Source of the DNA: Corallococcus sp. AB032C | GTDB taxonomy: Bacteria > Myxococcota > Myxococcia > Myxococcales > Myxococcaceae | Reading direction: 5' to 3' | DNA: 16,102 nt | Assembly (NCBI RefSeq): GCF_003668935.1 | Contig: NZ_RAWP01000027.1 | Coordinates: forward strand, 81,555-97,656 | Shown here: positions 696 to 15,885 of the stretch, piece after piece | Layout of the letters: the number at the start of each line of letters is the position of its first letter | Position numbering within the stretch: position 1 is the first letter of the stretch | The notes under the pieces: generated by a model | What the model was told of the DNA's origin: nothing | What the model saw: the letters and a program-made list of their open reading frames with translations, nothing else | The model's database searches: none | Made by a program: the position numbers and the translations under genes

Positions 696-1523
696 TCAGC
701 GCTCCTGCAACTCGAAGTCGAACTCCTGCCCGAGGACGAGCACGCCGCCCTCCCACCACTGCACCGCGCGTCCTGTTCCCACCCGGCCCAGCACGGGAAG
801 CGGCTCGTAAAGGGCAGCGCCCGAGGCCCGGTGGTACGGGTACGGCGCGCCGAAGGACTCGCCGGCAGCGAACCAGGGGGCCACCCACGACGCGGGCGCC
901 ACCCACGGCAGCACCACCAGCTCGTCCACCAGCAACTCGCCCGCTGCCGCTGCGTTGCTGAGCGTCACCGCGCCCAAGGGAAGCTGGCCCGTGCCATCCA
1001 CGGCGAGGAAGCCGTCCGCGTGGGGGCTGGCACCCGGCACGCCGTTGACGCTGAGGCCCACGCCCGCGCGGTGGACGTGGTGGCGCCACCTGTCCTTTGT
1101 CCCCTGGCGCTTCCACCAGTACGCCACCGTCCACTTCGCCCCGAGGCCCGTGGAGAAGGTGACCCTCGCTCCCGCCTCTATGAGCATGCACCCGCCGAAG
1201 CGCCCCGTGGCTTCCACCGCCCACACGTTGCCCACCATGCCGCTCGGCGAGAGGAAGGCCTGGCTACGCAGCCCGTCCTCGAAGTTCCACACCTGGCCCT
1301 CGCCCTTGAGGAGCCCCCGGTACGCGCGGGCCTCTTCCTGCGTCAGCGGGCCCGTGTTGCCCCCCAGGGTGAAGACTTCACGCCGCTCGCTGCTGCGCAG
1401 CCAGCCGGAGAAGGCGCGGCGGTGCTCGCCCAGCAGCGTCGGTGTGTACGTGAGGCCTCGCTCCGCTGAAACGGGCAAGGGGATTCCAGAAAGAGCCAGA
1501 GCAGCCGGCATGGGATTCCTCAA
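696..1523 (-). CDS. Minor tail protein at the distal-tail (Dit) position.
   Basis: The track ORF is 275 aa. The likely true start is the ATG near 1511 (MPAALALSG...), preceded by GAGGAA about 6 nt upstream. It lies immediately downstream of the tape measure gene. Size and position fit Dit. There is no diagnostic motif. Confidence 0.45.
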   Translation of the reverse strand: MRNPMPAALALSGIPLPVSAERGLTYTPTLLGEHRRAFSGWLRSSERREVFTLGGNTGPLTQEEARAYRGLLKGEGQVWNFEDGLRSQAFLSPSGMVGNVWAVEATGRFGGCMLIEAGARVTFSTGLGAKWTVAYWWKRQGTKDRWRHHVHRAGVGLSVNGVPGASPHADGFLAVDGTGQLPLGAVTLSNAAAAGELLVDELVVLPWVAPASWVAPWFAAGESFGAPYPYHRASGAALYEPLPVLGRVGTGRAVQWWEGGVLVLGQEFDFELQER

Positions 1524-4198
1524 GAGTCGGAGAAGCGCGCCGTGAGGCGCACGCGGCTGCCAGCAACGCGGATGCTCGCGCGCTGCTGGCGCAGCGACTC
1601 GTCCCGCCGCGTGGCTTCCATGGCGGCGTCGATGTCGTAGCCGGTGATGTTATAGGTGACGGGCGCGGCCATGGCAGAGACGTTGCCCGTCTCCGGCGCA
1701 CGCACCTGACCTCCTCCGCTGAAGCCAGGAGGCAAGTAGCTGCCGAGCCATCCCGGCACCGCAGGCGTCGCGGGCACCTGCCCCGAGAGGAGCTGCTGAA
1801 TGGCGGGCGGGAACATGCCGAGGAGCCATCCCGGCACCGGCCCGTTGGGCGAGGACGGGCCGTCCTCCTCCAGCTCCCCGGCGTCAGGCGCCTCGGGCGT
1901 GGGCTTTGGTTTGGGCGGCACCGTGGGGCCGTCCTGCGTGTCCTCGGACTCGAAGCGGCGCAGCGCCACCTTCCACGCGGCCGGCACGTTGGTGAGAGCC
2001 GCCGTGGCGCGGGCCACCGCTTCCGTGTGCTCCTCCACCTGCGCGGTTTCCTCGGCACGTGCCTTCGCCGAGTCCCACGTCGTGTCCTCCAGCACCTGGA
2101 GGGAGTCGTCCATGCTGTCGGTGTCCACCTTCAGCTTGTTGAGCGAGCGCGCGAACTTCTTCAGCCCGTCAAAGCCCGTCCAGTCGATGAGGCTGGAGAT
2201 GGCACGGATGACGGTTTGCACCGCGCCGATGACGGCATTCCAGACTTCGCTGATGGCCTTCGCGATGGTGAGGACGACGCTGCCAACGAACTTCAGCGCC
2301 GTGAAAAGGGCCTTCATGATGGGCCCGCCCAGGATGCTGAGCGGCTGCTGAATCAGCAGGAAGGTGCGGCCCAGCACCTCGAAGAGGGGCGCCAGGCCCT
2401 TCAGGATGTCGCCCAGCACCACCAGCGGCGGCACCAGCGGTTCAATCGCCTCCCCCAGCATCTCGAAGACGGGCGTGAGGGCAGAGAGGACGCCATCCAC
2501 CACCATCGTCACGGCGTTGAGCAGGGGCTGGAGCGGCTCCAGCAGCGTGCCCAGCGAGTCGGCCACCTTCTGGATGAGCGTGTTGACGGACTCGATGACG
2601 CCCTTGAAGCCCTCGGACTGCATGAGCAGTTCGCCCACCACGGCGATGATGGCGCCGTAGACACCACCCGCCTCCATGCCCTGGACGCCCGCGTTGATGA
2701 GGTCGCCCAGCTGGCCCAGGCCGCCGATGAAGCGGTCCACCAGCGACTCCCTCGCGGCGTCCATGGCGGCTTCCGCTTCAGCGGCGAGGTTCTCCGCCTC
2801 CAGGCGCATCTCGTGGAAGGCAGCGGCGCCAGCGGCCTCCTCCGCGCGGATGCTGGCCAGGTACTCCTTGCGCGACTCCTCGTTGGCCTGGGCCTGGAGC
2901 TTCGCCATGGCGGCCTGCTCCGCCGCCTCCTGCTTCTGGGCGGCCTCCAGGGCGGCCTTGTCCGTGGGCTTGCGGATGCGCGCCTTGCCCTGTGCCCCGC
3001 CCCCACCCGCTAGCTTCGCCAGGAGGGCCTGGATCTGCGACGTGACGCCCTCCAGGTTGAGGGCACGGGCGAGGTCCGCGCCGAGGCGCTTCGCGCCCAC
3101 CGCGCTGGTACGCAGACCGTAGGCGACGCTCTCCTCCAGCTCGCGTCCCGCGCCGGCCACGGCGTCACCCACCGCCACCGCTGTCTGCTGCGCACCGTCC
3201 CAAAGCACCTGGGCGCCCTGCCCCAGCGTCTCCAGCAACTCCCGGCCCGTGACGGTGGACACCTGCCGGAAGGTGGCTGCCAGCTCCGGGAAGCCCGCCT
3301 GTCGTGCCACGGGCTCAAGGAGACGGGAGACGCCACGCACCAGGGCCGCGACGCGGTCCAGGACGGACAGGGCCGCCCCCTTCACGAAGTCGCCCAGCGC
3401 CAGGAAGGCGTGGGAGAAGCCGTCCGCGATGCGGCCTGCCCACTTGGCCAGCTGGTCGCCGATGTCCCGGAAGAAGTCCGCGAGGCCCGTGCTGCTGTCC
3501 TCCCAGGCGGCGTAGACGCTGCCCGCCAACAGCACCAGGGCCGCTACGGCGGCGGCCACCGCAGCGAGCGGCACCAGCAGGCTGCCGGTGGACAGGGCCA
3601 GGCGCCCCAGGCTGCCGGTGACGGATGGCGTACTCGCCACCATGCCGCCCATGGAGGCCGTCACCTTGTCCATGGAGGCCGCCAGGGAGGCCAGGGCCAC
3701 GGACTTGTTGAGCAGGCGCAGCACCTTCACCAGCCCGCCAGCGCCAATGGCCACGGCCTCCACCACGCCCGCCACTTTCCCCAGCGCCCCAGCAGCGAGG
3801 CCCGCCCCAGCGACCCACACCAGCACGTCCGAGGCGGCGGCCTTCACCTCGGGAGACAGGGACTGGAAGCTCGCGACCACGCGCTCGACGCCGTCCGTGA
3901 CGTGCTGCACCACCGGCAGGAAGGCGTCGCCCACGTCCGCCGCCAGCGTGTAGAGGAGTGCTGTCATCCGCTCCGTTTCGCGTTCCATGGCTGCGTTGGA
4001 CTTGGACGCCGCCGCAACGGCACCGGCAATCCCCGCCGCCACCGCCGCGCCAATCTCACCCAGGCCCTTGGATTTCTCCTTCACCTGCTTGGCGGCCTTC
4101 TCGACGGCATCCACCACCTTGCCGAGGTTGGACAGCGCCTCGCCCACAGAGGCCGTCACCGCCACATACAGGTCGCCTACGCGCAGGCCTCCGGCCAT
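1520..4198 (-). CDS. Tail tape measure protein, 892 aa.
   Basis: It is the longest ORF in the module and lies directly after the G/GT chaperone pair. It is Ala/Gly/Leu-rich with long helical and coiled-coil stretches (e.g. AAQKQEAAEQAAMAKLQAQANEESRKEYLASIRAEEAAGAAA), hydrophobic Gly/Ala segments, and a Pro-rich C-terminal region (PTVPPKPKPTPEAP). It starts at the ATG at 4198. Confidence 0.85.
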   Translation of the reverse strand: MAGGLRVGDLYVAVTASVGEALSNLGKVVDAVEKAAKQVKEKSKGLGEIGAAVAAGIAGAVAAASKSNAAMERETERMTALLYTLAADVGDAFLPVVQHVTDGVERVVASFQSLSPEVKAAASDVLVWVAGAGLAAGALGKVAGVVEAVAIGAGGLVKVLRLLNKSVALASLAASMDKVTASMGGMVASTPSVTGSLGRLALSTGSLLVPLAAVAAAVAALVLLAGSVYAAWEDSSTGLADFFRDIGDQLAKWAGRIADGFSHAFLALGDFVKGAALSVLDRVAALVRGVSRLLEPVARQAGFPELAATFRQVSTVTGRELLETLGQGAQVLWDGAQQTAVAVGDAVAGAGRELEESVAYGLRTSAVGAKRLGADLARALNLEGVTSQIQALLAKLAGGGGAQGKARIRKPTDKAALEAAQKQEAAEQAAMAKLQAQANEESRKEYLASIRAEEAAGAAAFHEMRLEAENLAAEAEAAMDAARESLVDRFIGGLGQLGDLINAGVQGMEAGGVYGAIIAVVGELLMQSEGFKGVIESVNTLIQKVADSLGTLLEPLQPLLNAVTMVVDGVLSALTPVFEMLGEAIEPLVPPLVVLGDILKGLAPLFEVLGRTFLLIQQPLSILGGPIMKALFTALKFVGSVVLTIAKAISEVWNAVIGAVQTVIRAISSLIDWTGFDGLKKFARSLNKLKVDTDSMDDSLQVLEDTTWDSAKARAEETAQVEEHTEAVARATAALTNVPAAWKVALRRFESEDTQDGPTVPPKPKPTPEAPDAGELEEDGPSSPNGPVPGWLLGMFPPAIQQLLSGQVPATPAVPGWLGSYLPPGFSGGGQVRAPETGNVSAMAAPVTYNITGYDIDAAMEATRRDESLRQQRASIRVAGSRVRLTARFSDS

Positions 4199-4821: not shown

Positions 4822-5247
4822 CTACACCGCGATGGGCGCGCCCTGGCCGGCAAGGGTGGCTGAGAAGGTGACGACGTCCGTGGAACTGCGGCCCTCCTCG
4901 TAGGACGTCACCTTCACCGGGTAGCGGAAGCCTTGCGTGCCCATGGGGGCCGTCTCGTCCTCCACGATGGTGAAGAAGACGGTGGCGTCGGTCTCGAAGG
5001 CGTCACGCAGCACTTGTTGGGGCGCGCTGCCCTTGAAGACGTGGCCGGAGAGCGGAATGGAGAAGGACTTCCAGGTGCCCTTTGTGCGCTTGTACCCGTC
5101 ACCGCCGAAGTAGTTGGCGTCCACGGTGTCCTTCGCGCGGTTGACGGGCGCCTCCAGCACGCCGTCCAGCGCGTCCGCTTCCACGGGCGCGGTGTCGGTG
5201 GCGCGGATGTAGAGCTTGTCGAAGAAGGCCTCTCGGGGTTCGGGCAT
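4822..5247 (-). CDS. Major tail protein, 141 aa.
   Basis: It is the gene immediately upstream of the G/GT chaperones, which is the invariant position of the major tail subunit in siphoviruses. ATG start. The size is typical of small major tail proteins. The call rests on synteny. Confidence 0.6.
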   Translation of the reverse strand: MPEPREAFFDKLYIRATDTAPVEADALDGVLEAPVNRAKDTVDANYFGGDGYKRTKGTWKSFSIPLSGHVFKGSAPQQVLRDAFETDATVFFTIVEDETAPMGTQGFRYPVKVTSYEEGRSSTDVVTFSATLAGQGAPIAV

Positions 5248-5261
5248 GGTGGTGGTTCCAG

Positions 5262-5663
5262 TCAGTGGGAGGGAAAGCGCTGCGCCAGGAAGTCCTTCAG
5301 GACGGCAGCAACGCGGCGACGAGCGCTGCCCCGAGCGCGACGGAAGGACTTGCGAAGAAAGTGCGGCGGCGGATTGAAAAGCTGCGCGCCCCAGTGCCAG
5401 CCTTCATGAATGGGGCCGGCGGCCGGGTGCACGTAGCCTGCCGTCCACGTCGTGGAGAGGCGCTGGCTCAGGTTGTGGAGGGGGCCGCTCAAGAAGGCGC
5501 TATCGCGCAGGTGGCCCTCGCCCACTGGCACGAGGAAGAGGGAGTAATCCAGCGCGAGGCGGGCAATGTCCCGGCAGGGCGCATCCAGCGCACGCAGCAC
5601 TTTGGCGGGAGAGCGGCGCAGGCGCTCCAGCCTCACCACATCAACTCTGAGTCGGACGGGCAT
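5262..5663 (-). CDS. Protein at the tail-terminator position, 133 aa.
   Basis: It lies between the neck/tail-completion gene and the major tail gene, with an ATG start at 5663. The low-GC insert begins immediately upstream of this start codon. The call rests on synteny. Confidence 0.4.
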   Translation of the reverse strand: MPVRLRVDVVRLERLRRSPAKVLRALDAPCRDIARLALDYSLFLVPVGEGHLRDSAFLSGPLHNLSQRLSTTWTAGYVHPAAGPIHEGWHWGAQLFNPPPHFLRKSFRRARGSARRRVAAVLKDFLAQRFPSH

Positions 5664-5790: not shown

Positions 5791-7992
5791 ATGCCAACCT
5801 CACACCCCTACTCACCTGATCACCCAATTACAAGTCACAAAGAAGACAAACTAAATCGTTCTCCCTTCGCCCAGCGAATAGCGGACACCATTGCCGAAAG
5901 GCTCGATCCAAGCCCGCTGGTCATTGGACTAAACGGCGTCTGGGGTGACGGAAAAACATCGACGCTCCAACTGATCGAAGAACGCCTCTCAACAAGAGGC
6001 GATGTAATCTGCGTCAAATTCAACCCCTGGTATTTCGAAAATGAGGAAAAGCTTCTTCGAGGCTTTTTCTCCAACCTCTCAACGGCTCTCGGCAAGTCAC
6101 TCAGCACCCGGAAAGAGGCCGCAGGAGAAATCATAAGCAAGTACAGCTGGATATTATCGTTCGCATCAACAACACTGACGCTAGACAAGGACACATCAAT
6201 ACAGTCAAATCCCGGAGAAGCAGCCAAGCAACTAGGCCAGCAACTGTCCACAGTGGAACTACCGGCGCTAAGAAGCAGACTGGAGTCAATCCTTCGTGAA
6301 GAAGGGAAACGGATTGTCGTCTTCATCGACGACATCGATCGCCTCGATCGCAGCGAAATCCAGTCAATCTTCAGACTCGTCAAGCTCTCGGCCGGGTTTG
6401 AAAGAACAACATACCTTCTCGCATTCGATGAAGCCATCGTCTCGGCTTCGCTTGGAGAAAGATACGCCCAAGGCGGAGCACAAGCCGGCCGCGACTTCCT
6501 CGACAAGATAATTCAAGTCCCACTTCGACTCCCACCAGCAGACAAGCTCTCACTGAGGGATATCATTTTCTCGGGGATCAATGAAGCAATTGAATTGGCA
6601 GGAATAGAAGACATCAAGGACGAAGATATCCAATCCTTCCATATCGCTTTTCGTGAAGGACTTGAGCCCCACATTACAACCCCCCGCAAAGCAAACTTAT
6701 TCAAGAACACACTGTCCTTCGCCCTCCCTATACTTAAAGGCGAAGTACATCCGATCGATCAAATATTAATCGAAGGCATCCGCATCTTCCTTCCAGGCCT
6801 CTATTCAGCAATCCTAGAAAACGAAAGCTCTTTCCTCGACAGTTCAGAGCGGCGCTCCAGGGAAGACGCACACAAGAAGCGCCTGCTTGAGATCATCAAC
6901 AATGCACTCCCATCAATAAACGAAGCAGGTCGCGAAAAGATAAGGCGTGGCCTCTTGGAAAGAATTTTCCCCCAACTTCAATCGGTTTTCGGCAACATCT
7001 TCTGGGGAGACAGCAGGCAAGATGCCTGGGAAAAAGAGCAGCGGATATGCTCTCGGCAGTACTTTCATCGATACTTCTCATACGCAATTCCAAGTGGAGA
7101 CGTGTCAGACAGATTCATATCAAATATCATAAAAATTGCAGGAAAACAGCCGGCCGACACCATAAGCAAGTCCATGCTTGAACTGGGCGCCCGAGGAGCC
7201 GACCGCCTAATTGACAAGCTAAACTCAGTCGTAGACGAACTGGACGAAGTCGAAGCCCTAAATATCGCAGAGGCGGTCGCCCAATGTGGATCCGTGTTGG
7301 CCAGCCAAAACACAGCCCACCATCCGCTCTCCACTGCCTCGCAAGCCGGGATTCTTGTCTACAACCTCCTAAAGAAATCCCCCAATGGCAACCGACGAAA
7401 GATCGCAGCCCAAAAAGTATTGCGAACCGCAGAGCCAATCATATTTGCGGTCGAATGCTTTCGATGGATAAGCCACAACAGCGAAACGCCTCTGGAAGAT
7501 CGAATTCTTGATGACGCCGGACTATCCGAATCCGGCAAGATTGTCGCAGAACGAATAAGCAACGAGGCCAAGGGCGATAAACTTTGGATAAAATACCCAA
7601 ACCATACGGGCTCGCTCTTCTTCTTCTGGAAGACCTACGGAAATCCCGAAGAGCCAACGCTACACCTGCGAGAACACTTCAAGGCAGACCACAAAAGAGC
7701 CACCGAGTTTATTCAGGCCTATATGCCAACAGCATTTCTGATCATGTCCGGAATACTAAGAAAATCAGAACTCAACCTGAATGCCTATAAATCCATCAAG
7801 AGCGTCTTTGACCCGGACGAACTAATCTATTTCCTTAAAATGACGCACGGGGCTGATATCGATCACTCCTCCACATCAAGAGCATCCGAGTCTCCAGAAA
7901 GGAGTGCTGCAGTTCAATTCGTCCGTATTCACAAAGCAGCGGCCACAGGTGCCGAAGACAACGACGAGGACGCAGATGAGACTGAAACTTGA
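5791..7992 (+). CDS. KAP-family P-loop NTPase (PifA-like NTPase), 733 aa, carried on a low-GC moron in the orientation opposite to the phage operon.
   Basis: It carries the diagnostic N-terminal KAP signature: D-K-L-N-R-x-P-F-A-x-R-I-A-D-T-I, followed by the P-loop GLNGVWGDGKTS (the G-x-W-G-x-GK-S/T form typical of KAP). The segment VKFNPWYFENEEKLL matches the KAP 'FNAW-Y' pattern. The Walker B motif RIVVFIDDIDRLDRSEI matches the KAP hhhhDDhDR form. The C-terminal ~380 aa have no motif I recognise and end in an acidic tail (AEDNDEDADETET). Codon usage is AT-rich (ata, tta, aaa, gaa), unlike the flanks. Confidence 0.88.
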   Translation: MPTSHPYSPDHPITSHKEDKLNRSPFAQRIADTIAERLDPSPLVIGLNGVWGDGKTSTLQLIEERLSTRGDVICVKFNPWYFENEEKLLRGFFSNLSTALGKSLSTRKEAAGEIISKYSWILSFASTTLTLDKDTSIQSNPGEAAKQLGQQLSTVELPALRSRLESILREEGKRIVVFIDDIDRLDRSEIQSIFRLVKLSAGFERTTYLLAFDEAIVSASLGERYAQGGAQAGRDFLDKIIQVPLRLPPADKLSLRDIIFSGINEAIELAGIEDIKDEDIQSFHIAFREGLEPHITTPRKANLFKNTLSFALPILKGEVHPIDQILIEGIRIFLPGLYSAILENESSFLDSSERRSREDAHKKRLLEIINNALPSINEAGREKIRRGLLERIFPQLQSVFGNIFWGDSRQDAWEKEQRICSRQYFHRYFSYAIPSGDVSDRFISNIIKIAGKQPADTISKSMLELGARGADRLIDKLNSVVDELDEVEALNIAEAVAQCGSVLASQNTAHHPLSTASQAGILVYNLLKKSPNGNRRKIAAQKVLRTAEPIIFAVECFRWISHNSETPLEDRILDDAGLSESGKIVAERISNEAKGDKLWIKYPNHTGSLFFFWKTYGNPEEPTLHLREHFKADHKRATEFIQAYMPTAFLIMSGILRKSELNLNAYKSIKSVFDPDELIYFLKMTHGADIDHSSTSRASESPERSAAVQFVRIHKAAATGAEDNDEDADETET

Positions 7993-8020: not shown

Positions 8021-8458
8021 TTAAATATTAACCATGACGAAGAATCCAATTATCACATTAAACACCCAACAATGCCGGTCTGCGCCATCTGTCCCCAAAT
8101 AGGCCGGTGCGCTTCCCTCCGCGCGTACAACAGAGCAAGAGGCGAGTGCCTCCAGGTGGAGGGCACTAAAGACAGCCTGAGCGAGTCGCTGCCCGCCCTC
8201 GAAGTCCTCCCGTGCTGAACGCACTCGCACCTGACAGCCTGGCGCAATGTACGCCGCGCGGCGCAGCCCCATGTACGCCTGTGGTCCCGCGCCGCCTGTC
8301 GCCAACAGGGCCACGGCCCGGTCCGGCACTTCGCCGTCGGCCTCAGGCATCGGAGCCGTGAAAAGGTTTGCACTTGTAGCTGGAGCGCGCATCAACCCTA
8401 TGCCTGCTGCCTCCAATACATCCGCGAGTTCCAAAGCGATGTCACGCATCAGAACCAC
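8021..8458 (-). CDS. Neck / tail-completion protein (HK97 gp10-like or DUF3168-like position). The last ~16 codons are encoded by low-GC insert DNA.
   Basis: The track ORF is 145 aa from the GTG at 8458. The more likely start is the ATG at 8449, which overlaps the stop of the upstream gene as TGATG. Its position after head closure fits a neck protein. The C-terminus …HCWVFNVIIGFFVMVNI* is translated from the AT-rich segment 8021 to about 8070. Confidence 0.45.
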   Translation of the reverse strand: MVLMRDIALELADVLEAAGIGLMRAPATSANLFTAPMPEADGEVPDRAVALLATGGAGPQAYMGLRRAAYIAPGCQVRVRSAREDFEGGQRLAQAVFSALHLEALASCSVVRAEGSAPAYLGTDGADRHCWVFNVIIGFFVMVNI

Positions 8459-8772
8459 ACCTTACGGAAACGCACCGCACCCGATCCGTCCACTGACTCG
8501 TCCACGGCTACGGGGCGCCGCGCACGGTTGAAGTCCGCGACGTCCTCACCCGGCAACCAGACACGGTGCTGTAGGGTGACTGGCGCGTCCGTGTAGACAA
8601 CATGCGCAGCTAGGTGCTCGTTACCATTGGCGTCGCGGATGAGACGCCGGAATGGCTGCACGCGCGCCCGCGTCGTCAATTGGGGCCCGAGCGTCGGCTT
8701 GCCGTAGGCGTCTCGTCCCGTCAGAACGGCATAGGTGATCAACTGACGGAAGGTGTCCGAAGGTGAGGCCAT
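8449..8772 (-). CDS. Head closure / head-tail joining protein (gp7-like position), 107 aa.
   Basis: A ~100-aa ORF directly after the connector gene. Its start overlaps the upstream stop as ATGA at 8772. The size and position are typical of head-closure proteins. Confidence 0.5.
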   Translation of the reverse strand: MASPSDTFRQLITYAVLTGRDAYGKPTLGPQLTTRARVQPFRRLIRDANGNEHLAAHVVYTDAPVTLQHRVWLPGEDVADFNRARRPVAVDESVDGSGAVRFRKVWF

Positions 8773-9431
8773 CAGATCACCCGGTGAATGACGTAGGGCG
8801 CGAGCAACGCCTGCGCGACACCAGGGATAGGACTCTTGCCCTCAGCCTTCGCGGCAAAGTAGCTCACCGACCAATCCCCGATGGACTCGCTGGCGACCAT
8901 CGCGTCCACACCGCGCGAGCGGTACAGCTGCACTGCCGTGAGAACGGTGGCCTCCTGCACGTCCTCCGGCAACGTCACCACGCGCGACGCATCCAGGGCC
9001 CGCTGCCCCGGCGTCACGAAGCCTCCGTCGTAGACGACGCGGATGCCCTCCTCGCTGCCCTGGAAGCTGTCTACCACCTCCACCACCAGCCCTCCCGAGC
9101 GCGCCGTCTCCCGCCAAGCTCCGCGCCTGCGGTACAGCATGCCGGCGTCCGCCAGCTTCCCAAGGCTCTCGTACTCCTCAGCCGGAACGAAGGCACCGCC
9201 CTCCCAGACGCCCACCACCAGGACAACGGGCGGGCGCTCCAGCAGCAGCAATGGGCGCCCGTAGCCAGCCGGGTATTCCACGAGCCCCTGGCCGTGCTCG
9301 AAGACCCGGCCGCAGTAGCCAGCAACGGCCCGGCTCGCCGCCGTGACGAGCGACTCCAGACGCGGCGTCACCGCTACGCCCAGGTCATCCGCCACGGTGG
9401 CAGCCAGGCACAGGTCAGCAGGATGCGCCAT
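8772..9431 (-). CDS. Head-tail connector / adaptor (gp6-like N-terminal domain), 219 aa.
   Basis: The N-terminus AHPADLCLAATVADDLGVAVTPRLESLVTAASRAVAGYCGRVF resembles the gp6-like connector pattern (…L…a…E..cgR.f). It is the second gene after MCP. The 219 aa size suggests an extra C-terminal domain. Confidence 0.5.
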   Translation of the reverse strand: MAHPADLCLAATVADDLGVAVTPRLESLVTAASRAVAGYCGRVFEHGQGLVEYPAGYGRPLLLLERPPVVLVVGVWEGGAFVPAEEYESLGKLADAGMLYRRRGAWRETARSGGLVVEVVDSFQGSEEGIRVVYDGGFVTPGQRALDASRVVTLPEDVQEATVLTAVQLYRSRGVDAMVASESIGDWSVSYFAAKAEGKSPIPGVAQALLAPYVIHRVI

Positions 9432-9435
9432 GGCG

Positions 9436-9870
9436 TCACACCGGCAGCGTCATGGCGCCGCCGAAGACGATGAAGGCGCACGCCTGGAGGCTGGGCGAAG
9501 TCCCGCCCGTCAGCGTCGTGGCCTCCGCAACGCGGATGAACCGCTTCGCCGCGCCGAGGTCCACGTCCTTCTCCGCGAAGGTGTTCGCCGCAGCCAGTTG
9601 CACGGAGGCCGAACCCGGTCCGGCCGGCACGAAGTCCGTCCAGGCGTCATCCGCTCCATTGTCGCTGGAGTGCTGGAGTTTCACCTCGTAGCCCTGCGCG
9701 GTGGGGCTGCCCGTTACCGCTCCCGTGGCCGCAACGAGGACGCAGCTCTCCCCCAGGACGAGCCGATCATAGCCCTGCCCCTGGCGAGTTCCGGCAGGCG
9801 TCGCGGCGGGCGGCGTGCCCAGGCGAGCGGCGATGAAGGTGCCAATCTGACTGATGTGCGGTGCGCTCAT
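9436..9870 (-). CDS. Hypothetical virion protein, 144 aa, in a non-canonical slot between MCP and the connector.
   Basis: ATG at 9870, preceded by AAAGGA. It is Gly/Ala/Thr-rich with no motif I recognise. Its position inside the structural block is the only evidence. Confidence 0.35.
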   Translation of the reverse strand: MSAPHISQIGTFIAARLGTPPAATPAGTRQGQGYDRLVLGESCVLVAATGAVTGSPTAQGYEVKLQHSSDNGADDAWTDFVPAGPGSASVQLAAANTFAEKDVDLGAAKRFIRVAEATTLTGGTSPSLQACAFIVFGGAMTLPV

Positions 9871-9882
9871 AGTGTCCTTTCG

Positions 9883-9895
9883 TGGGGCGTCGCCC
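9883..9895 (-). other. GC-rich hairpin (GGGGCG-n-CGCCCC) in the 27-nt gap immediately after the MCP stop.
   Basis: A perfect 6-nt inverted repeat flanks one unpaired nucleotide. No U-run follows, so it is not a canonical intrinsic terminator. It could be an attenuator or an mRNA-stability element that sets capsid-to-downstream stoichiometry. Confidence 0.4.
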
Positions 9896-9897
9896 CG

Positions 9898-11121
9898 TCA
9901 GTTGCTGCCCCAGCTCAGGTCCTTCACCACGACGCCGGACTGCCGGTGGCGCATGGCCAAGTCATGCTTGGTGATGGCACGCAGCACCGTCTGGTCCGTG
10001 GAGATGCCGGACACCAGATGCCCGCCGCGCGTGAAGGCTCCGTTGGGGAAGACTTCGATTTCCAGCGCCATGGACTCGCCGATGAGAACCTCGGCCATGT
10101 CTACGAGATACAGCTCCGAGCAGTTCTTGCCCGAGCCCAGCGTCTCCGGAATCTGGTTGGTGACGAAGAAGGGCACGTTGCGCAGCGTGCCGCGCTCCAC
10201 CATCTCCCGCTCCAGGGCGTTGGTGCCCTCTCCGCCAGGACCCGGAGCATCGAGAATGGCCGTCTCCGCGTTGGGGGACATCAGCCACACCGGCTGCACC
10301 ATGGGCACGTTGGCCTTCTTCAGCTTCTTCTTCGCCTTGTTCAGCTCCTTCTTCATCTCGCCCAACGTGGGCGCGCCCGCCGTGGCCACCGTCTCCGCGT
10401 AGACGTGGGCCGCGTCCACCTGGTTGCGGATGCCGCGCGGCTCCAGCTGCGTGCCGCTGCCTCGCAGGAAGGCCATGTCCTCCCGCAGAGCCATGACGTT
10501 CAGCAGGTCGTTGCGGATGAACTCCTCGGCGTTGATGGACGCGTTGCGGATGAGGTCGTTGGGCACTGCCGTCAGCGCCGTGAGCTTCTTCTCGGACAGG
10601 GACACCGTGTCCGTGCCCGGCTCCGACTCCTGGATGGTGCTCGTCTCGCCGCCGTAGAAGGCCGTGCCCGTGCTGGACTGCCGGTCGAAGGTGAGCGAGG
10701 CCCCGATGGGGATGACGCGGGCGCCGGCCTGTCGCACCACGGCCTTGTGGCGCAGCAGCTCGATGAACTCGGAGGCGAACTGGGGATGCACCAGGGAGCC
10801 CATGCCCGAGTAGTTGCCCTGGGAGAGGGCCTTGCTCACCACCTCGTCGCCCCAGCCCTTCAGCACGTCCACCACGTTGCGCCCTTCCATGCGCGCGACG
10901 GCCTTCGCCTTCACGAAGCGGATGAGGTTGAGGCCCGTGCCCTCCGTCATGTGCTTGCCGGTAATGGGCGAGCGGCGCGGTTCCTCGGGCGCGGTCTCGG
11001 CCGCCTTGGAGCCCAGCAGGGCCGCATAGCTGTCGCGGTGCCCCTTGGACTGCTCCACCAGTTGCGCGGCCACCAGCGGGCCCAGCGACTTCGCCATCTC
11101 CTGCATCTGCTCGGGGGTCAT
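9898..11121 (-). CDS. Major capsid protein, HK97 fold, 407 aa.
   Basis: It lies immediately after the prohead protease, with an ATGA overlap at 11118-11121 and AGGAGAAGG about 8 nt upstream of the ATG. The size (~400 aa) and order (portal, protease, MCP) are diagnostic of the HK97 family. Segments such as LVDMAEVLIGESMALEIEVFPNGAF and GGETSTIQESEPGTDTVSLSEKKLTA are typical of this capsid family. Confidence 0.88.
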   Translation of the reverse strand: MTPEQMQEMAKSLGPLVAAQLVEQSKGHRDSYAALLGSKAAETAPEEPRRSPITGKHMTEGTGLNLIRFVKAKAVARMEGRNVVDVLKGWGDEVVSKALSQGNYSGMGSLVHPQFASEFIELLRHKAVVRQAGARVIPIGASLTFDRQSSTGTAFYGGETSTIQESEPGTDTVSLSEKKLTALTAVPNDLIRNASINAEEFIRNDLLNVMALREDMAFLRGSGTQLEPRGIRNQVDAAHVYAETVATAGAPTLGEMKKELNKAKKKLKKANVPMVQPVWLMSPNAETAILDAPGPGGEGTNALEREMVERGTLRNVPFFVTNQIPETLGSGKNCSELYLVDMAEVLIGESMALEIEVFPNGAFTRGGHLVSGISTDQTVLRAITKHDLAMRHRQSGVVVKDLSWGSN

Positions 11122-11804
11122 GCCTTCTCCTGGAGGTGCTGAAACAGGGCCCGCGCCGTGTGAGCGGCAAGGGCGTGGGTGTCGGACTCGGAAAGGGAGG
11201 GAGGTGCGGCGGGCGGCGTGGCCTTGCGCTTCTTCCGCGACGTGCGGCCCAGCGCCTTCACCACCGCGTCCGCGATGTCGCGAATGAGGGCGGCGCGCTC
11301 GTCGGAGTGCTTCTTCAGCCGCACCGCGCGCTGGTTGCCGGGAATCGTGACGACGGAGATTTCGAGAAGCTCCTGCTCGTCGCAGTCGTAACCGCCGCGC
11401 TCATTCTCGTGGTAGCGCAGCATGCGGTAGCGCACGCTCACCGCGTTAAGGATGCCCTTCTCCACCTTGGACTCGACGCGTCGGGCAAACTCATCGTCTT
11501 GGTCGAACTCGATGTCCACCAAGAGTGCGTCGCCCTGCACGTAGGCGCGGCCCTTGCCGATGGGCAGGACGTCCGTGCGGCCCGCGCCGAACAGCCCGCC
11601 AGAGCTATCGTCGTGCATGTAGAGGACGACGGGATTGGCGGCGTATGCATCGAGCCGCCAGCCCTGGATGGACAGCCGGTCATTGTAGCGGTCGAAGTCG
11701 GCGTCGTTCGCACGGAAGGTGAAGACCTTTGGCTGGCCCTCAACAGGTGACGGCGCATCCTGCTGAGCGACAAGGCGACGAGTTCTTGAAAGAGGTGCAG
11801 GCAT
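11118..11804 (-). CDS. Prohead (capsid maturation) protease, HK97 / S78 family, 228 aa.
   Basis: It sits between portal and MCP. The N-terminal region VFTFRANDADFDRYNDRLSIQGW…VVLYMHDD and the segment LLEISVVTIPGNQRA match the HK97 prohead protease pattern (catalytic His in the MHD context). The C-terminal basic tail (RKKRKATPP) is scaffold-like. Confidence 0.82.
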   Translation of the reverse strand: MPAPLSRTRRLVAQQDAPSPVEGQPKVFTFRANDADFDRYNDRLSIQGWRLDAYAANPVVLYMHDDSSGGLFGAGRTDVLPIGKGRAYVQGDALLVDIEFDQDDEFARRVESKVEKGILNAVSVRYRMLRYHENERGGYDCDEQELLEISVVTIPGNQRAVRLKKHSDERAALIRDIADAVVKALGRTSRKKRKATPPAAPPSLSESDTHALAAHTARALFQHLQEKA

Positions 11805-11901
11805 TCACCTTTTCAATGGGGGCAGTATTAGAACTCCCCAAGAGCAAGCCCAATCCCCCCAGACAACGAGCCCGCTGGAAGCAGCCCTTCGCCAATACCA
11901 C

Positions 11902-11910
11902 TGGTATATT
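11902..11910 (+). promoter_or_regulatory. Candidate extended -10 promoter (TGgTATATT) for the lipoprotein moron.
   Basis: The sequence cactgGTATATTggcg lies in the low-GC leader about 60 nt upstream of 11971 and about 130 nt upstream of the ATG at 12040. A TG dinucleotide sits 1 nt upstream of the hexamer. There is no clear -35 element. Confidence 0.25.
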
Positions 11911-12039
11911 GGCGCCCCAACACAACACAGGGTCAATCCAACCCCACCGCAAACATCACTTACGCAGATTATGTATCCATGCTTCTCGCCATTACTAGGC
12001 CTGATTGACTTTCGTACGTCGCTCTTATTTCATCGAGCA

Positions 12040-12708
12040 ATGACCAGACCGACCGCTCTGATCCTCACTGCGTCACTGCTAACCAGCGCATGCTTCGGGC
12101 ATATTCCTCCTGAAGGCACTCAAGTGACGATGCCTCCCACAGAGACAACTCCACCGTCACGCGCCAAACAAGAGGTTGCTGCTCCCCCCGCGACAGGCAA
12201 TAAGGCAGTCGACGAGGCACAGGCTTTTGTTTCGGACGCCTTCAACCATTGCGATAATGTCACCCTCAACACTGCATACCAGCAACTACTGATCACGAAG
12301 ATTGCAACAAGAAGGAAAAACCTTGGACTTCTTGCAACAACAATAGTTGGCGTCGCCGGCAGCATTGTTACCGCAGCCCTCCTTGGATCCAAGGCAGCCA
12401 GCGACGGGAATTCAGAGAAGGCCACCATTGTCGGGGCAAGCTCAGCAGGCGCGACAGCAATCACAGGCGTAGTCTCTATCTTTATCGTTGGCAGCGGAGC
12501 AGACGATCGCGTCAAGCAGATGTCAGACAACAAAAACCGAATCGACCAGGAGGTCGACGACCTCTCGAACTCGTGCAAAGATATCAACGCCAACAACGCA
12601 GCCCAGTGCACACAAAAAGCTAAACGCGTTAAGAATCGCTGCGGAATCGCAGAGACTCAGCTACCCTACGAAGTCGAAAACCAGCCCTCATTCCTACCGA
12701 CCAACTAG
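12040..12708 (+). CDS. SlyB-like lipoprotein with a glycine-zipper membrane segment and a Cys-containing C-terminal domain (222 aa from the ATG at 12040), carried on a low-GC moron.
   Basis: The signal peptide MTRPTALILTASLLTSAC has a lipobox (L-T-S-A-C). A Pro/Thr-rich linker follows (PPEGTQVTMPPTETTPPSR). Two Gly/Ala/Ser/Thr-rich hydrophobic segments follow (LGLLATTIVGVAGSIVTAALLGS and ATIVGASSAGATAITGVVSIFIVGSGA), resembling the glycine-zipper 2TM domain of SlyB/Pcp-type lipoproteins. The polar C-terminal domain has four Cys (NHCDN, NSCKD, AQCTQ, NRCGI). GC is about 50% by eye. The gene is convergent with the portal gene. Confidence 0.6.
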   Translation: MTRPTALILTASLLTSACFGHIPPEGTQVTMPPTETTPPSRAKQEVAAPPATGNKAVDEAQAFVSDAFNHCDNVTLNTAYQQLLITKIATRRKNLGLLATTIVGVAGSIVTAALLGSKAASDGNSEKATIVGASSAGATAITGVVSIFIVGSGADDRVKQMSDNKNRIDQEVDDLSNSCKDINANNAAQCTQKAKRVKNRCGIAETQLPYEVENQPSFLPTN

Positions 12709-12750
12709 CCATTAGATGCCATCCGATTTTTAGTGTGGGCTGGCTTGGGA

Positions 12751-14034
12751 TTATGGAGCTACTTGTCCCGGCATGGGCAACGGATAGCCCTGCCGGTTAG
12801 AGTCCGGTTCGAATCCAGCCAATGCTCGCCACTCGTCATAGCTAAAGGCCTCCGGCATGGCGCTCATGACGCGTAACTGGTGCTCGCGGTCCGCCGGCAC
12901 AGGGCTGTCGTAGTCAAGAATGGCATCCGCGCCGCCGAACAGAGGCATCAGCCGCATCTGGTACTCGGTACGGAGGAACTCCATGCGCGGGAGCGTCGCC
13001 TGCTCGGCGAGGTTCTCCCGCGCCGCGAAGGCAGTCGCCTTGTTCGAGCTGGAGATGTCGCCCACGATTTCGGGCGGGACTCGAAACGTCATCCTCACGA
13101 AGTCCATGAGGAACTTCCGCAATTCCACCAACTGCATGTCGCGGAAGCTGGTGTCCAGGCGCGCGAACGTGACCCGGCCGCTGGTGAGCAGCAGCTTGCC
13201 CGCCTTGTCCGGCCCCTGATGCTCGCGGGCCAGCGACTCCTTGAAGGCCTTCGCCCCTGCGCTGTTCGCATCCGTCAGCCCCTCGATGGATGCGATGGCT
13301 GGCGGAAGCATGTTGTTCCAGAAGCTCGCCCGGAGGAACCGCGCCACGAACTCGTCCGTGTCCAGTTCGTCCCCAAGCGCGAAGGCGGGACCGACTCCTC
13401 GCCCAAGCGGATCCTCCGGGTCCAGGTTTCGCAGATGGAGCACATCCGCCGCTGGAATCTCCCGCATCACGCCGCCCACGGCGACCGTGAAGGTCCGCAG
13501 TTCACGCGGGACGTCCATCGCAGGCAGCCGAGTGACGAGGTTCGGAGGCACCGGCCAGAATCCCACCGGGAAGCCCGCCACACGTTCCAGCACCAAGAAT
13601 GCCTCGCCGACCAGGTCCAAGTACACCTGCACCAGCTTTGTGACTGAGCGGCCCGTCAGGTAGTCGTTCGGGTCCGCGAGCATCCGAAGAATTGGATGGT
13701 CCGGCACCTCCTGGACTTCGCCCGCGTCCAGCATGGACTTCAACCGCATGGCGCGGACCTCGCGCGTCGCGCTGCGAAGGGCGTAGTCCTTCACCGGCTG
13801 GCCCTCCCGCGAGACGCGCCGGTACACACGCCAGTTCACCCCGGCCACAGAGTCCGCGACCACGTCCACAATCGCCCGGAGCCAGGGCATTTCGCGGTAC
13901 GCCGCCAGTAGTTGCGAGGTGCCTCGGCGCGGCGGCGCCTGCTGCCAGCGCGCCAGCTCCAGCCCCGTTCCCTGTCGCGGAGGACGCGCCACCGCCGCCT
14001 TCATCCGGTCCCACAATCCCAAGACACGCCTCAC
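12751..14034 (-). CDS. Portal protein, HK97 family, 427 aa.
   Basis: It lies immediately downstream of terL, with its GTG start overlapping the terL stop as GTGA (an alternative ATG lies at 14004). It is about 430 aa and is followed by the protease and MCP. This is canonical portal position and size. Confidence 0.82.
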   Translation of the reverse strand: MRRVLGLWDRMKAAVARPPRQGTGLELARWQQAPPRRGTSQLLAAYREMPWLRAIVDVVADSVAGVNWRVYRRVSREGQPVKDYALRSATREVRAMRLKSMLDAGEVQEVPDHPILRMLADPNDYLTGRSVTKLVQVYLDLVGEAFLVLERVAGFPVGFWPVPPNLVTRLPAMDVPRELRTFTVAVGGVMREIPAADVLHLRNLDPEDPLGRGVGPAFALGDELDTDEFVARFLRASFWNNMLPPAIASIEGLTDANSAGAKAFKESLAREHQGPDKAGKLLLTSGRVTFARLDTSFRDMQLVELRKFLMDFVRMTFRVPPEIVGDISSSNKATAFAARENLAEQATLPRMEFLRTEYQMRLMPLFGGADAILDYDSPVPADREHQLRVMSAMPEAFSYDEWRALAGFEPDSNRQGYPLPMPGQVAP

Positions 14035-15440
14035 AGGCAGAAGAAAGAGTCAGCGAAGACCAGCTCATGTGTGCCCCACAAAAGGGCATCGACGCGGTCA
14101 TCGCGGCGGCCGTTGATGCCGCTGAATTTGGCGAGCTGCGCCTCCAGCTTCGGGAAGCTGCCCACCAGCTCGATGCGCCCGGTCTCCGCCAGGGCGCTCA
14201 CCGGCTCGGCGCGCTTCGACTTCGCCTCCCGAGCACGCACCGGCTTCACGTTGACGTGGACGCCCATCTCCGAGGCCACCGTCTGGATGGTCGTCTCCAC
14301 CATCTCCCCGCCTGAGTTCACCTCCGCAACCAGGGCGTCACAGCCGAAGGCCAGGTACTCTCGGATTGCGGCTGCGGCCCACTCACGCGGAGAGCCCCGG
14401 AAGCTTGCGTCCTTGAGCACCGACACGCGCTTGAGCGGCGCGCCATCCGTCCCGACAAGCGGACTGCTTCTCACGCCCTGGACCACAATGCCCGTCTCGT
14501 CCGAGCCCGTCTCGCTGGTGGGCGCTGGGTCCACGGACACGATGCGCCGGTCCAGGCCGCGCGCGTATTCGTGGGCATCCGCTTCCACCCTGCCCCACTT
14601 CGCCGAGCCAAAGATGGCGCCTGGCACGTCCATCAGCAGCCGGCCCAGGACCTCCTGCTGGCCCCAGCGCGTGTGCATGAGGGCGCGCATGGTGGCGACG
14701 GCGCTGGGCGCCAGGTTGGCGCGGTTGGCCAGCGACGAGCCCGTCCGCAGCACCACTCCCGGCCGCAGCGTCTTCGCTTCCGCATCCGCGAAGAGCAGCT
14801 CCTCCAGCTTCCGCAACGGCCTGGGTGTCCCGGTAAGCAGCAACTGAGGCGGGTGCGCGACGGTGCCGATGCGCAGCACCATGGGGAGCTGGTCCAAGGC
14901 CGCCATCTCATGCTTCCACGAGGCGGGCTCGTCGCCCCAAGCCCAGCCGCAGTTTGGGCCGCGCAGCCGGTCTGGCTTATCCGCCGAGTAGCAGATGGCA
15001 TAGACACCGTTGGGCCACGTCACCCGGCGCTTGCTGGGCTCGTAGACGGGCATGAACCAGGGCGGCGACAAGGCCAGGATGCCGCTGGTGCCACGGATCA
15101 TCGTGTCGCGCACGTCAGCCGCAGTGGGTCCGATGAGGGCACCGATGGACTTCGCTTCCCGGGCCTTCTGAATCACCCACCGGGCCCCGCTCCACGTCTT
15201 CCCGAAGCCCCTGCCAGCCATGATGAAGCAGGTGGAGAACGACGCCGGGGGCACCTGTTCTCGCCGCGCCCAGAAGTCCAGGTCGTGGACGAGCGTTTCC
15301 ACCTCGGGATGGGTCATCCGCCCGAAGAGGCGCGCGAGGCCCTGGCGGGTGCCGGCCTGGCGCACCATGAAGGCTGCTGGGGACTCGTCTGGGGCGAGTT
15401 GCTCCAGCATCCCCGCGAAGGGCAGGCGCTCACGGCGCAT
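14031..15440 (-). CDS. terL: Terminase large subunit, 469 aa.
   Basis: ATG at 15440. The Walker A motif FIMAGRGFGKT is present, with an acidic Walker B-like WAWGDE. The C-terminal RNase-H-like nuclease domain shows Asp motifs (RIVSVDPA…SDETGIVV…GRRDDRVDALLWG). It sits between terS and portal. Confidence 0.9.
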   Translation of the reverse strand: MRRERLPFAGMLEQLAPDESPAAFMVRQAGTRQGLARLFGRMTHPEVETLVHDLDFWARREQVPPASFSTCFIMAGRGFGKTWSGARWVIQKAREAKSIGALIGPTAADVRDTMIRGTSGILALSPPWFMPVYEPSKRRVTWPNGVYAICYSADKPDRLRGPNCGWAWGDEPASWKHEMAALDQLPMVLRIGTVAHPPQLLLTGTPRPLRKLEELLFADAEAKTLRPGVVLRTGSSLANRANLAPSAVATMRALMHTRWGQQEVLGRLLMDVPGAIFGSAKWGRVEADAHEYARGLDRRIVSVDPAPTSETGSDETGIVVQGVRSSPLVGTDGAPLKRVSVLKDASFRGSPREWAAAAIREYLAFGCDALVAEVNSGGEMVETTIQTVASEMGVHVNVKPVRAREAKSKRAEPVSALAETGRIELVGSFPKLEAQLAKFSGINGRRDDRVDALLWGTHELVFADSFFCL

Positions 15441-15885
15441 CGTCGCCCCCGCTGCTGCTGGCCCCCGCCGTCGCTTCGGGAGCGTCCGGCAGCAGGCGGC
15501 CCAGCCGGTCCATCAGCAACTCGCGCAGCGCGCGCTCGTCGGCGGCCTTGTCCTCGGGCGCCACCTCCGAGACGTTGTCCCGCCTCCCGTACAACTCCGG
15601 GAAGCGCCGCGACAGGAGCCACTGCACGTGCTTCGGGTTGTGCGCGGCAGCCGCCATCAGCATTTCCGTGGCGGACTGCATGAAGCGCGCTTCCGCAGCG
15701 CTCACCGCGAGGAAAAACTCGTGGAAGCGGCCCCGTTCCTCTCCCGCACCGCGATGAATCCAGCGCGAAAGCGTGTGCTCGTTCACGCCAACGAGGCCTG
15801 CCACTGCGCGACGGAAGAGGCCGCGCTCCAGGTGGCCGCAAATCTCGGCCTGAAGTTCAGGGGTTAGCTTTGAGGGAGGTGCCAT
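15430..15885 (-). CDS. terS: Terminase small subunit with an N-terminal helix-turn-helix (about 151 aa from the ATG at 15885; the track ORF extends to the GTG at 15939).
   Basis: The ATG at 15885 is preceded by the strong SD GAGGGAGGG. The HTH-like segment ELQAEICGHLERGLFRRAVAGLVGVNEHTLSRWIHRGA is present. The gene overlaps the terL start by 11 nt. It is the first gene of the packaging/head operon. Confidence 0.7.
   Translation of the reverse strand: MAPPSKLTPELQAEICGHLERGLFRRAVAGLVGVNEHTLSRWIHRGAGEERGRFHEFFLAVSAAEARFMQSATEMLMAAAAHNPKHVQWLLSRRFPELYGRRDNVSEVAPEDKAADERALRELLMDRLGRLLPDAPEATAGASSSGGDDAP

Follow-up and report, generated by a model that had tools for sequence, protein, structure and literature searches.

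The window analysed here, a stretch of 16,102 nucleotides from Corallococcus sp. AB032C (contig NZ_RAWP01000027.1, positions 81,555 to 97,656), carries on its minus strand a phage head-and-tail module that Pfam, PHROGs and the gene calls identify as HK97 type. Within this module, the portal gene (12751-14034, minus strand, with a GenBank start at 14022; Pfam Phage_portal, 3.6e-41) and the gene for the prohead serine protease (11118-11804, minus strand; Pfam Peptidase_S78, 1.7e-06, and PHROG head maturation protease) are parted by 946 bp, at 11805-12750 when measured from portal stop to protease start. The GC content of this gap is 0.53, against 0.65-0.69 in the flanking genes. It contains a single substantial open reading frame (ORF), which lies on the plus strand, antisense to the structural and late genes, and spans 11971-12708 at its longest; its GC content at third codon positions is 0.57, compared with 0.82-0.93 in neighbouring genes. 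An earlier reading of the same sequence, hereafter the original prediction, had described a low-GC moron of about 0.95 kb that separates portal from protease and encodes a lipoprotein on the antisense strand. The separation, the base composition and the antisense gene are all borne out, and so is the term moron, since the insert is foreign and holds one gene, and related prophages differ at exactly this site. The segment is a foreign single-gene cargo cassette in a conserved accessory-gene hotspot at the portal-protease junction, and its product belongs to a very rare, undescribed family of predicted envelope proteins that travels here as hotspot cargo.

The comparison with related prophages rests on a scan of one genome per species, which yielded 14 loci with a related portal, ten of them readable across the junction, and on 26 further loci from IMG/VR. 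Together these give a close clade of 25 readable loci (10 genomic and 15 from viral contigs, including some duplicates), with portals 86-95% identical. In every one of the 25, portal and protease are parted by an insert of 0.9-3.1 kb with a GC content of 0.47-0.55. Seven relatives at a greater distance, with portals 62-67% identical, have the two genes side by side at native GC, so the insertion site is a derived feature specific to the clade. The statement that portal and protease genes are normally contiguous thus holds for the distant relatives and fails in the close clade, where the junction is always occupied.

The borders of the insert are sharp. Blastn homology with the 25 sister loci stops at about 12761-12764 and restarts at about 11810-11824; in the window itself it breaks at about 12762 and restarts at about 11823. 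The segment singled out by the original prediction therefore corresponds to a discrete, replaceable low-GC cassette, for which blastn breakpoints, junction alignments and GC content give the limits 11824-12762. The cassette extends from the conserved portal codons ending in PGQ to the conserved ribosome-binding site (RBS) motif of the protease, and it contributes the last three codons of the portal (VAP) as well as its stop codon. The conserved portal sequence stops at the same PGQ in the sister loci, and each cassette brings its own short C-terminal tail and stop. On the protease side, the sole conserved block upstream of the gene in the 25-locus alignment is 11805-11823 (minus strand), which reads CCCCCATTGAAAAGGTGA followed by the protease ATG. 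This right-hand junction has the consensus CCCCCAT(T/A)(G/A)A-AGAGGTGA-ATG and holds the protease RBS and start; only some 20 nucleotides are conserved (CCCCCATTGA-AGAGGTGA ahead of the ATG). At the cassette ends (junctions 12754-12762 and 11805-11823 of the window, and loci L005-L036) we saw neither a repeat nor a recombination-site motif.

What do the other cassettes carry? Their genes fall into about 26 ORF clusters, most of them antisense to the late genes. About a quarter of these clusters are recognisable, and the recognisable ones are defence genes: Shedu SduA in three loci (L005, L014/L022), an Mrr_cat type IV restriction enzyme (L009), a Metallophos effector (L011), Schlafen AlbA_2 with HATPase_c_4 (L012) and a DUF4062 protein (L010). 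The lipoprotein of the window forms a singleton cluster and is the only lipoprotein among the hotspot cargo; its gene occurs in none of the 25 sister loci and in none of the seven distant relatives, where the site holds either another insert or adjacent genes. The chromosome of Corallococcus coralloides KYC2213 has two copies of this prophage type (L005 and L006) with different genes at the portal-protease site, Shedu SduA in the former and, in the latter, a gene for an unannotated protein of 311 aa that has a hydrophobic helix at its N-terminus.

Prophage defence hotspots, as described for P2 and P4, combine conserved core flanks with variable cargo rich in defence genes (Rousset et al. 2022, PMC9122126), and the portal-protease site shows conserved flanking core genes, variable cargo and known defence genes in the same sense. 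The insert is also extra DNA absent from relatives and of deviant base composition, which is how morons are recognised (PMC3594210). Like HK97 gene 15 and the P2/P4 hotspots, it places deviant-GC DNA in a structural operon between conserved flanks, with varying cargo that includes known anti-phage genes; unlike them, the window cassette supplies the last codons and the stop of the portal, and we recognised in it neither promoter nor terminator. We found no description of this site, or of this Myxococcaceae lineage, in the literature that we searched.

A second insert of the same kind lies further along the module, between the tail terminator gene (8021-8449) and the next tail gene (5262-5663). 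It encodes, on the plus strand and again antisense, a PifA-like KAP-family P-loop NTPase of 733 aa (5791-7992, GC 0.50; PADLOC PifA, 3.3e-78 over residues 5-635 of 733; Pfam KAP_NTPase, 1.8e-47). In sister prophages this second site is likewise variable, low in GC and mostly antisense.

In the portal-protease cassette of the window, the gene is best read as 12040-12708 on the plus strand, encoding a lipoprotein precursor of 222 aa plus stop, as supported by the ORF listing, the alignment of homologues and the hits of a family hidden Markov model (HMM). In the GenBank model (P0001, 194 aa), translation begins at GTG 12124, which leaves out both the signal peptide and the lipobox. Because homologues (P0002, P0003, P0005-P0009 and others) align over these two elements, upstream of the GenBank start, ATG 12040 is the best and the likely start codon. 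The late start of the database model thereby hides the lipoprotein signal. Several other family members in public data appear N-terminally truncated in the same way as P0001.

From ATG 12040 the protein begins MTRPTALILTASLLTSAC. The putative type II (lipoprotein) signal peptide covers residues 1-18 (12040-12093), with Arg3 in the n-region, ALILTASLL as h-region and a lipobox LTSA|C that ends at Cys18 (12091-12093). The signal peptide, MTRPTALILTASLLTSA|C, conforms to a PROSITE-type lipobox rule (positive n-region, h-region, and [LVI][ASTVI][GAS]C within about the first 35 residues). The lipobox announced by the original prediction is thus real by pattern, and the product is presumably a lipoprotein precursor cleaved by signal peptidase II and lipid-modified at Cys18. 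The Pro/Thr linker proposed earlier is also present, as residues 19-54 (12094-12201), opening with C-F-G-H-I-P-P-E-G when counted from the modified cysteine and lacking regular structure in the AlphaFold2 model. Then come the soluble part of helix 1 (residues 55-93, 12202-12318), with a conserved Cys71 and the pair R92-K93; a predicted membrane-active hairpin (residues 94-153, 12319-12498), formed by the helices LLATTIVGVAGSIVTAALL and ATIVGASSAGATAITGVVSIFIVGSG with a short polar loop between them; and C-terminal soluble helices (residues 154-206, 12499-12657) with Cys179, Cys190 and Cys201. The double hydrophobic segment rich in small residues, another element of the original prediction, is equally genuine: two stretches rich in Gly, Ala, Ser and Thr lie at about residues 94-115 and 127-153, with peak Kyte-Doolittle means over 19 residues of 2.12 and 1.66.

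AlphaFold2, run with a 24-sequence alignment of the family, places helices at 55-118, 131-149, 153-178 and 187-206, and a run with a shallower alignment gave the same topology. The predicted local distance difference test (pLDDT) is 85-98 for residues 51-90 and 161-210 taken together (85-96 over 51-90, and 80-98 over the wider range 151-210), and only 50-59 in the hairpin. In the model, helix 1 and the C-terminal helices are predicted to form a three-helix bundle. The protein had been credited with a four-Cys C-terminal domain, which needs correction, as Cys71 precedes the hairpin and only Cys179, Cys190 and Cys201 follow it. Since the four conserved cysteines lie on both flanks of the hairpin, they should all be on one side of the membrane; given the signal peptide, this would be the oxidising, periplasmic side. 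Disulfides among the four probably staple the bundle. The features of the sequence thus suggest a core of about 150 residues held at the periplasmic-side membrane surface by a lipid and a flexible Pro/Thr tether.

How widespread is this protein? When 1.84 billion representative proteins were scanned in full with an HMM of the family, 22 clusters matched at E ≤ 0.001; a word-indexed search with the single protein returned only four proteins. Our family alignment comprises 24 members, of which the four closest form a subset used in some searches; the named sources are one metagenome-assembled genome of Polyangiaceae and soil-type metagenomes. A search of JGI metagenome contigs with the 4-sequence alignment found no family member. 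The lipobox is kept in 17 of the 24 members, the others being short or N-terminally truncated calls, and its spacing to the first hydrophobic helix is 68-83 residues, with one outlier at 107. Immediately after the lipid-modified Cys, about 10 of the 17 lipobox-bearing members show the motif C-x-G-x-[LIV]-P-E-P (12091-12117 in the window), which may be a sorting signal or a tether. The most conserved region is the hairpin (mean frequency of the majority residue 0.63, against 0.31-0.42 elsewhere and 0.31-0.40 in the soluble helices). T100, G107, T111, C179 and C190 are invariant across the 24 members, C201 is conserved in at least 90%, and the four closest members all have C71, R92 and K93. This pattern would fit a conserved effector joined to a variable recognition surface. 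A conserved family with invariant residues also rules out a non-coding or spurious ORF.

The genomic neighbourhoods of the homologues are varied. P0002 adjoins small genes including RadC; P0003, lower in GC than its surroundings, sits where genes are sparse, with an IS110 transposase next to it and a polymorphic-toxin gene, Gln_deamidase_2 (L003:9771-10829), not far off; P0021 belongs to a four-gene operon with a DUF4942 protein; and P0025 has in its vicinity a polymorphic toxin of Rhs/Tc type (L019:9653-16873), whose 2406 aa form a SpvB/TcdB/YD-shell protein tipped by a NucA/NucB DNase and whose gene is followed by a ComJ-like gene. The family therefore moves in accessory and mobile contexts, and not in prophages alone.

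Is the protein related to any described family? Pfam, PHROGs, NCBIfam and PADLOC gave nothing above threshold for it. The original prediction likened the hydrophobic segments to SlyB/Pcp glycine-zipper lipoproteins and named Rick_17kDa_Anti as a further family to compare. Pfam searches at E ≤ 10 (the four closest members) and at E ≤ 1 (all 24) matched neither of these nor Transgly_assoc (YeaQ/YmgE), and the JGI label YeaQ/YmgE on P0003 and P0005 was not reproduced; the family kinship is therefore dropped, and the SlyB/Pcp likeness is compositional only. The window protein shares with these lipoproteins a lipobox followed by marginally hydrophobic helices rich in Gly, Ala and Ser, but differs from them in having an all-helical, Cys-containing soluble bundle split around the hairpin. 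Escape from the Sec translocon has been described for SlyB-type lipoproteins.

The one recurrent signal comes from SLATT, a class of predicted pore-forming defence effectors with two or three transmembrane helices that act with a cytoplasmic partner (PMC9226505; 10.64898/2026.04.29.721553). Thirteen of the 24 members match NCBIfam SLATT_1 below threshold (best E 0.0015), the window protein with E 0.0044 over residues 100-148. NCBIfam SLATT_fungal matches two members and SLATT_4 one, Pfam SLATT_fungal matches three and DUF4231 one, and there is a PADLOC RTasSLATT match at E 0.038. When the sequences were reversed, none of the 24 matched any SLATT model, and no family was matched by more than three of them; the SLATT signal is thus not a matter of composition alone. 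The hydropathy peaks and the AlphaFold2 helices also reproduce the arrangement asked of a SLATT protein, two transmembrane helices with flanking helices. On these grounds the hairpin can be viewed as a putative membrane-active element resembling the two-helix SLATT effector domain. The likeness thus comprises the order helix, two transmembrane-like helices, helices, the directional sub-threshold matches over the hairpin and the defence setting. In contrast to SLATT proteins, the window protein has a lipoprotein signal peptide, a Pro-rich tether, four conserved cysteines and flanks that are expected to be periplasmic, and no partner gene accompanies it. The pore or toxin-like role offered as an alternative by the original prediction gains some weak support from these matches, which recur across the family but stay below threshold.

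A Foldseek search of the Protein Data Bank (PDB) gave nothing significant (best E 0.12, among long helical hairpins); AhlB, SmhB, MakA and ClyA came at E 0.15-0.5 with template modelling scores below 0.36, and NCBIfam alpha-xenorhabdolysin at a non-significant E 0.08. The protein thus has no significant match, in fold or sequence, to alpha-pore-forming toxins of the ClyA/Hbl/AhlB type. In BFVD the best fold match was again not significant (E 0.05), and four giant-virus SLATT proteins figured in the top 50 at E 0.4-1.2. Nor did searching the PDB with a sequence profile yield a credible match. Known superinfection-exclusion (Sie) families (Cor, Llp, Ltp, SieA, gp15/YebO and Imm) had no match in PHROGs, Pfam or NCBIfam, and no GenBank phage matched either; homology to phage Sie proteins is thus not supported. 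A SitA-type toxin with its immunity gene was discarded, as the cassette has a single gene and its product no SitA-type domain.

Several membrane or lipoprotein morons block genome entry, among them HK97 gp15 (PMC3594210), P22 SieA (PMC10883804) and TP-J34 Ltp (PMC3952083). Taking the hotspot and the protein together, we tentatively propose that the cassette encodes a prophage-carried, envelope-level anti-phage lipoprotein, acting by exclusion or abortively; we consider this quite possible, if a little short of probable. The defence or exclusion role put forward by the original prediction is supported indirectly, by the Shedu SduA, Mrr-type nuclease, Schlafen/HATPase and Metallophos cargo at the same site and by the PifA-like second insert. 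The gene would be expressed from the repressed prophage, independently of the late operon to which it is antisense, and would protect the lysogen at the envelope stage of infection. There, the variable periplasmic bundle could meet parts of the incoming phage (tail tip, tape-measure or ejection proteins, for example), and the conserved hairpin, as a single unit or an oligomer, could obstruct or disturb the passage through the membrane on which genome entry depends; in the extreme case it might depolarise the cell, with an abortive outcome. By analogy, such a role would lie between static blockers (HK97 gp15, P22 SieA) and pore-type abortive effectors. As with HK97 gp15, P22 SieA, T4 Imm, Ltp of the Streptococcus thermophilus phage TP-J34, phi80 Cor and T5 Llp, this would be a small envelope protein from a prophage accessory gene, expected to be produced in the lysogen and placed in the path of the incoming phage. 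Unlike them, it combines a lipid anchor, a two-helix hairpin and a disulfide-type bundle, and has no detectable relation to them in sequence or fold. A more specific version is an "outside-in" effector, in which a lipid-anchored, periplasm-facing SLATT-type pore hairpin would be coupled to a disulfide-stapled sensor bundle that detects the phage entry machinery and would permeabilise the membrane without a cytoplasmic partner. We regard this version as rather unlikely. On the same reading, an effector that reaches the outer membrane could also be shared among kin through myxobacterial outer-membrane exchange, and protection (or killing) by the prophage would become a community trait.

A number of observations weigh against the proposed anti-phage lipoprotein. 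The link between hotspot and defence is guilt by association, and about half of the cargo types are without known function. A consensus two-hexamer scan of 11600-12900 found no promoter, and terminator-like sites occurred at chance level only; a candidate extended -10 element, TGGTATATT (11902-11910, plus strand), 130 nucleotides upstream of ATG 12040, was read from the sequence and is no more than a lead. Several homologues sit outside recognisable prophages, and no family member was found in IMG/VR with the 4-sequence alignment or by tblastn in 50,697 GenBank phage records. The best SLATT_1 score is 17 bits, which does not reach the curated cut-off of 41, and no SLATT-type partner (SMODS, SLOG, reverse transcriptase or RADAR) was found in the one-gene cassette or beside the homologues. 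Known SLATT proteins act together with such a partner in the cytoplasm, whereas the window protein has none and its flanks should face the periplasm.

Membrane topology adds to these points. The first hydrophobic helix is preceded by 3.5 Lys and Arg residues on average, whereas the hairpin loop has 1.25; for an inner-membrane hairpin of N-out orientation, this is contrary to the positive-inside rule. For the two hydrophobic segments, rough sums on a biological scale (values of Hessa et al. 2005) are +0.6 and +2.4 kcal/mol; the segments may therefore not be stop-transfer sequences, and these sums suggest that insertion of the hairpin is marginal. In addition, a Lys at position +2, the inner-membrane retention signal of Myxococcus xanthus lipoproteins (PMC3222651), is present in no family member, nor is the Ala at +7 reported as a sorting residue in M. 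xanthus. With the charge bias, the marginal insertion and the missing +2 Lys, the protein may reside in either the inner or the outer membrane, which keeps alive two rival explanations, receptor masking and a social function.

In the first of these, the protein would be sorted by the Lol pathway to the outer membrane, in the manner of phi80 Cor or T5 Llp, and would bind and inactivate a receptor (a porin, a TonB-dependent transporter or a pilus component) on which this phage and its relatives depend, so that adsorption fails. The conserved lipobox and the defence-hotspot setting agree with this, as does the lack of the M. xanthus +2 Lys (PMC3222651) throughout the family, and a marginally hydrophobic hairpin could escape the Sec translocon. 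However, PHROGs reveals no sequence relation to Cor or Llp, the Pfam glycine-zipper and Rick_17kDa models are unmatched, and the Kyte-Doolittle mean of the first hydrophobic helix, 2.1 over 19 residues, is a value typical of alpha-helical membrane anchors. Conservation also peaks in this hairpin and not in a soluble binding surface, and we consider receptor masking quite improbable. The same conservation bears on a static inner-membrane blocker that makes no pore, like HK97 gp15 or P22 SieA, in which the hairpin would be only an anchor, or a surface on which a host membrane protein docks, and the bundle would sterically stop the incoming phage from assembling its DNA conduit. Its architecture and context are identical to those of the exclusion or abortive lipoprotein that we favour, and small membrane morons in structural operons do stop DNA entry without touching receptors (PMC3594210, PMC10883804). 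Yet one would not expect conservation to peak in a mere anchor, with Thr and Gly positions invariant across 24 divergent members, or such an anchor to give directional SLATT matches, and there is no homology to gp15/YebO or SieA; we hold a static blocker to be unlikely, though worth keeping in mind.

Alternatively, the protein may have no anti-phage role and serve lysogenic conversion or social life, as an envelope-stress or membrane-organising lipoprotein, or as a toxin or kin marker passed on by outer-membrane exchange, like the SitA cargo of Mx-alpha. Myxobacterial prophage-like Mx-alpha units do carry lipoprotein toxins delivered in this way (10.1101/2024.12.30.630742), the family has no inner-membrane retention signal, distant homologues lie near an Rhs/Tc-type toxin and a ComJ immunity-like gene or near Gln_deamidase_2 and IS110, and the fold bears a weak, non-significant likeness to AhlB, SmhB and MakA. 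On the other side, a one-gene cassette leaves no room for an immunity partner, the hotspot cargo is of defence type instead of toxin/immunity pairs, and the protein has no SitA-type toxin domain. We give this explanation the same low probability as receptor masking. Much further down comes a lysis or morphogenesis part of the phage itself, for instance a spanin-like lipoprotein made of a single protein. It would account for a lipobox combined with hydrophobic helices, and two of the 24 members weakly match the Pfam Rz1-like LysC model (E 0.11), but the gene is low in GC and lies within the head genes and not in a lysis cassette. Since, moreover, the hairpin is central where a C-terminal anchor would be needed, the gene is antisense to the late operon, and it is absent from the 25 sister loci and the seven distant relatives, we reject this very improbable reading.

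The hotspot itself may be a more useful result than the lipoprotein. The sharply bounded portal-protease site is one of two cargo sites in a widespread prophage lineage of Myxococcaceae, the other being the tail-gene site of the PifA-like insert. With its many cargo clusters, the portal-protease site offers a place to look for new anti-phage genes in bacteria that are social and predatory and whose phage biology is little studied. The lipoprotein adds a rare family of unusual predicted build, with a lipid anchor, a SLATT-like hairpin and a Cys-stapled periplasmic bundle. If it works in the way proposed, it would show that pore-type effectors can be deployed from the periplasmic side with no cytoplasmic sensor.

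The rest of the window is occupied by the head-and-tail module. Beyond the genes already mentioned, Pfam and PHROGs identify, on the minus strand, the large terminase (14031-15440) and the major capsid protein (9898-11121); Pfam and PHROGs together with the gene calls further place there a head-tail adaptor (8772-9431), the tail terminator, a tail tube-like gene (4822-5247) and the tape measure (1520-4198). The DNA of the head module (9800-15500) had no blastn match among the 50,697 phage records, and the nearest portal of a cultured phage, the best in these records, is 31.5% identical. The host lineage of the cassette is one of uncultured siphovirus-type prophages of Myxococcaceae.

Two of the sister loci deserve a separate remark. 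In Myxococcus xanthus AM003 (L011:9607-11308), an insertion of 1.7 kb with native GC (0.68) and a 541-aa ORF interrupts the protease gene; this is probably an insertion sequence and suggests that the prophage is decaying. Another locus (L015, BNCN01000010.1) is labelled Comamonas sp. KCTC 72670 and holds a Myxococcus-type prophage, with a portal 88% identical and a GC content of 0.66; the assembly is probably mislabelled or contaminated.

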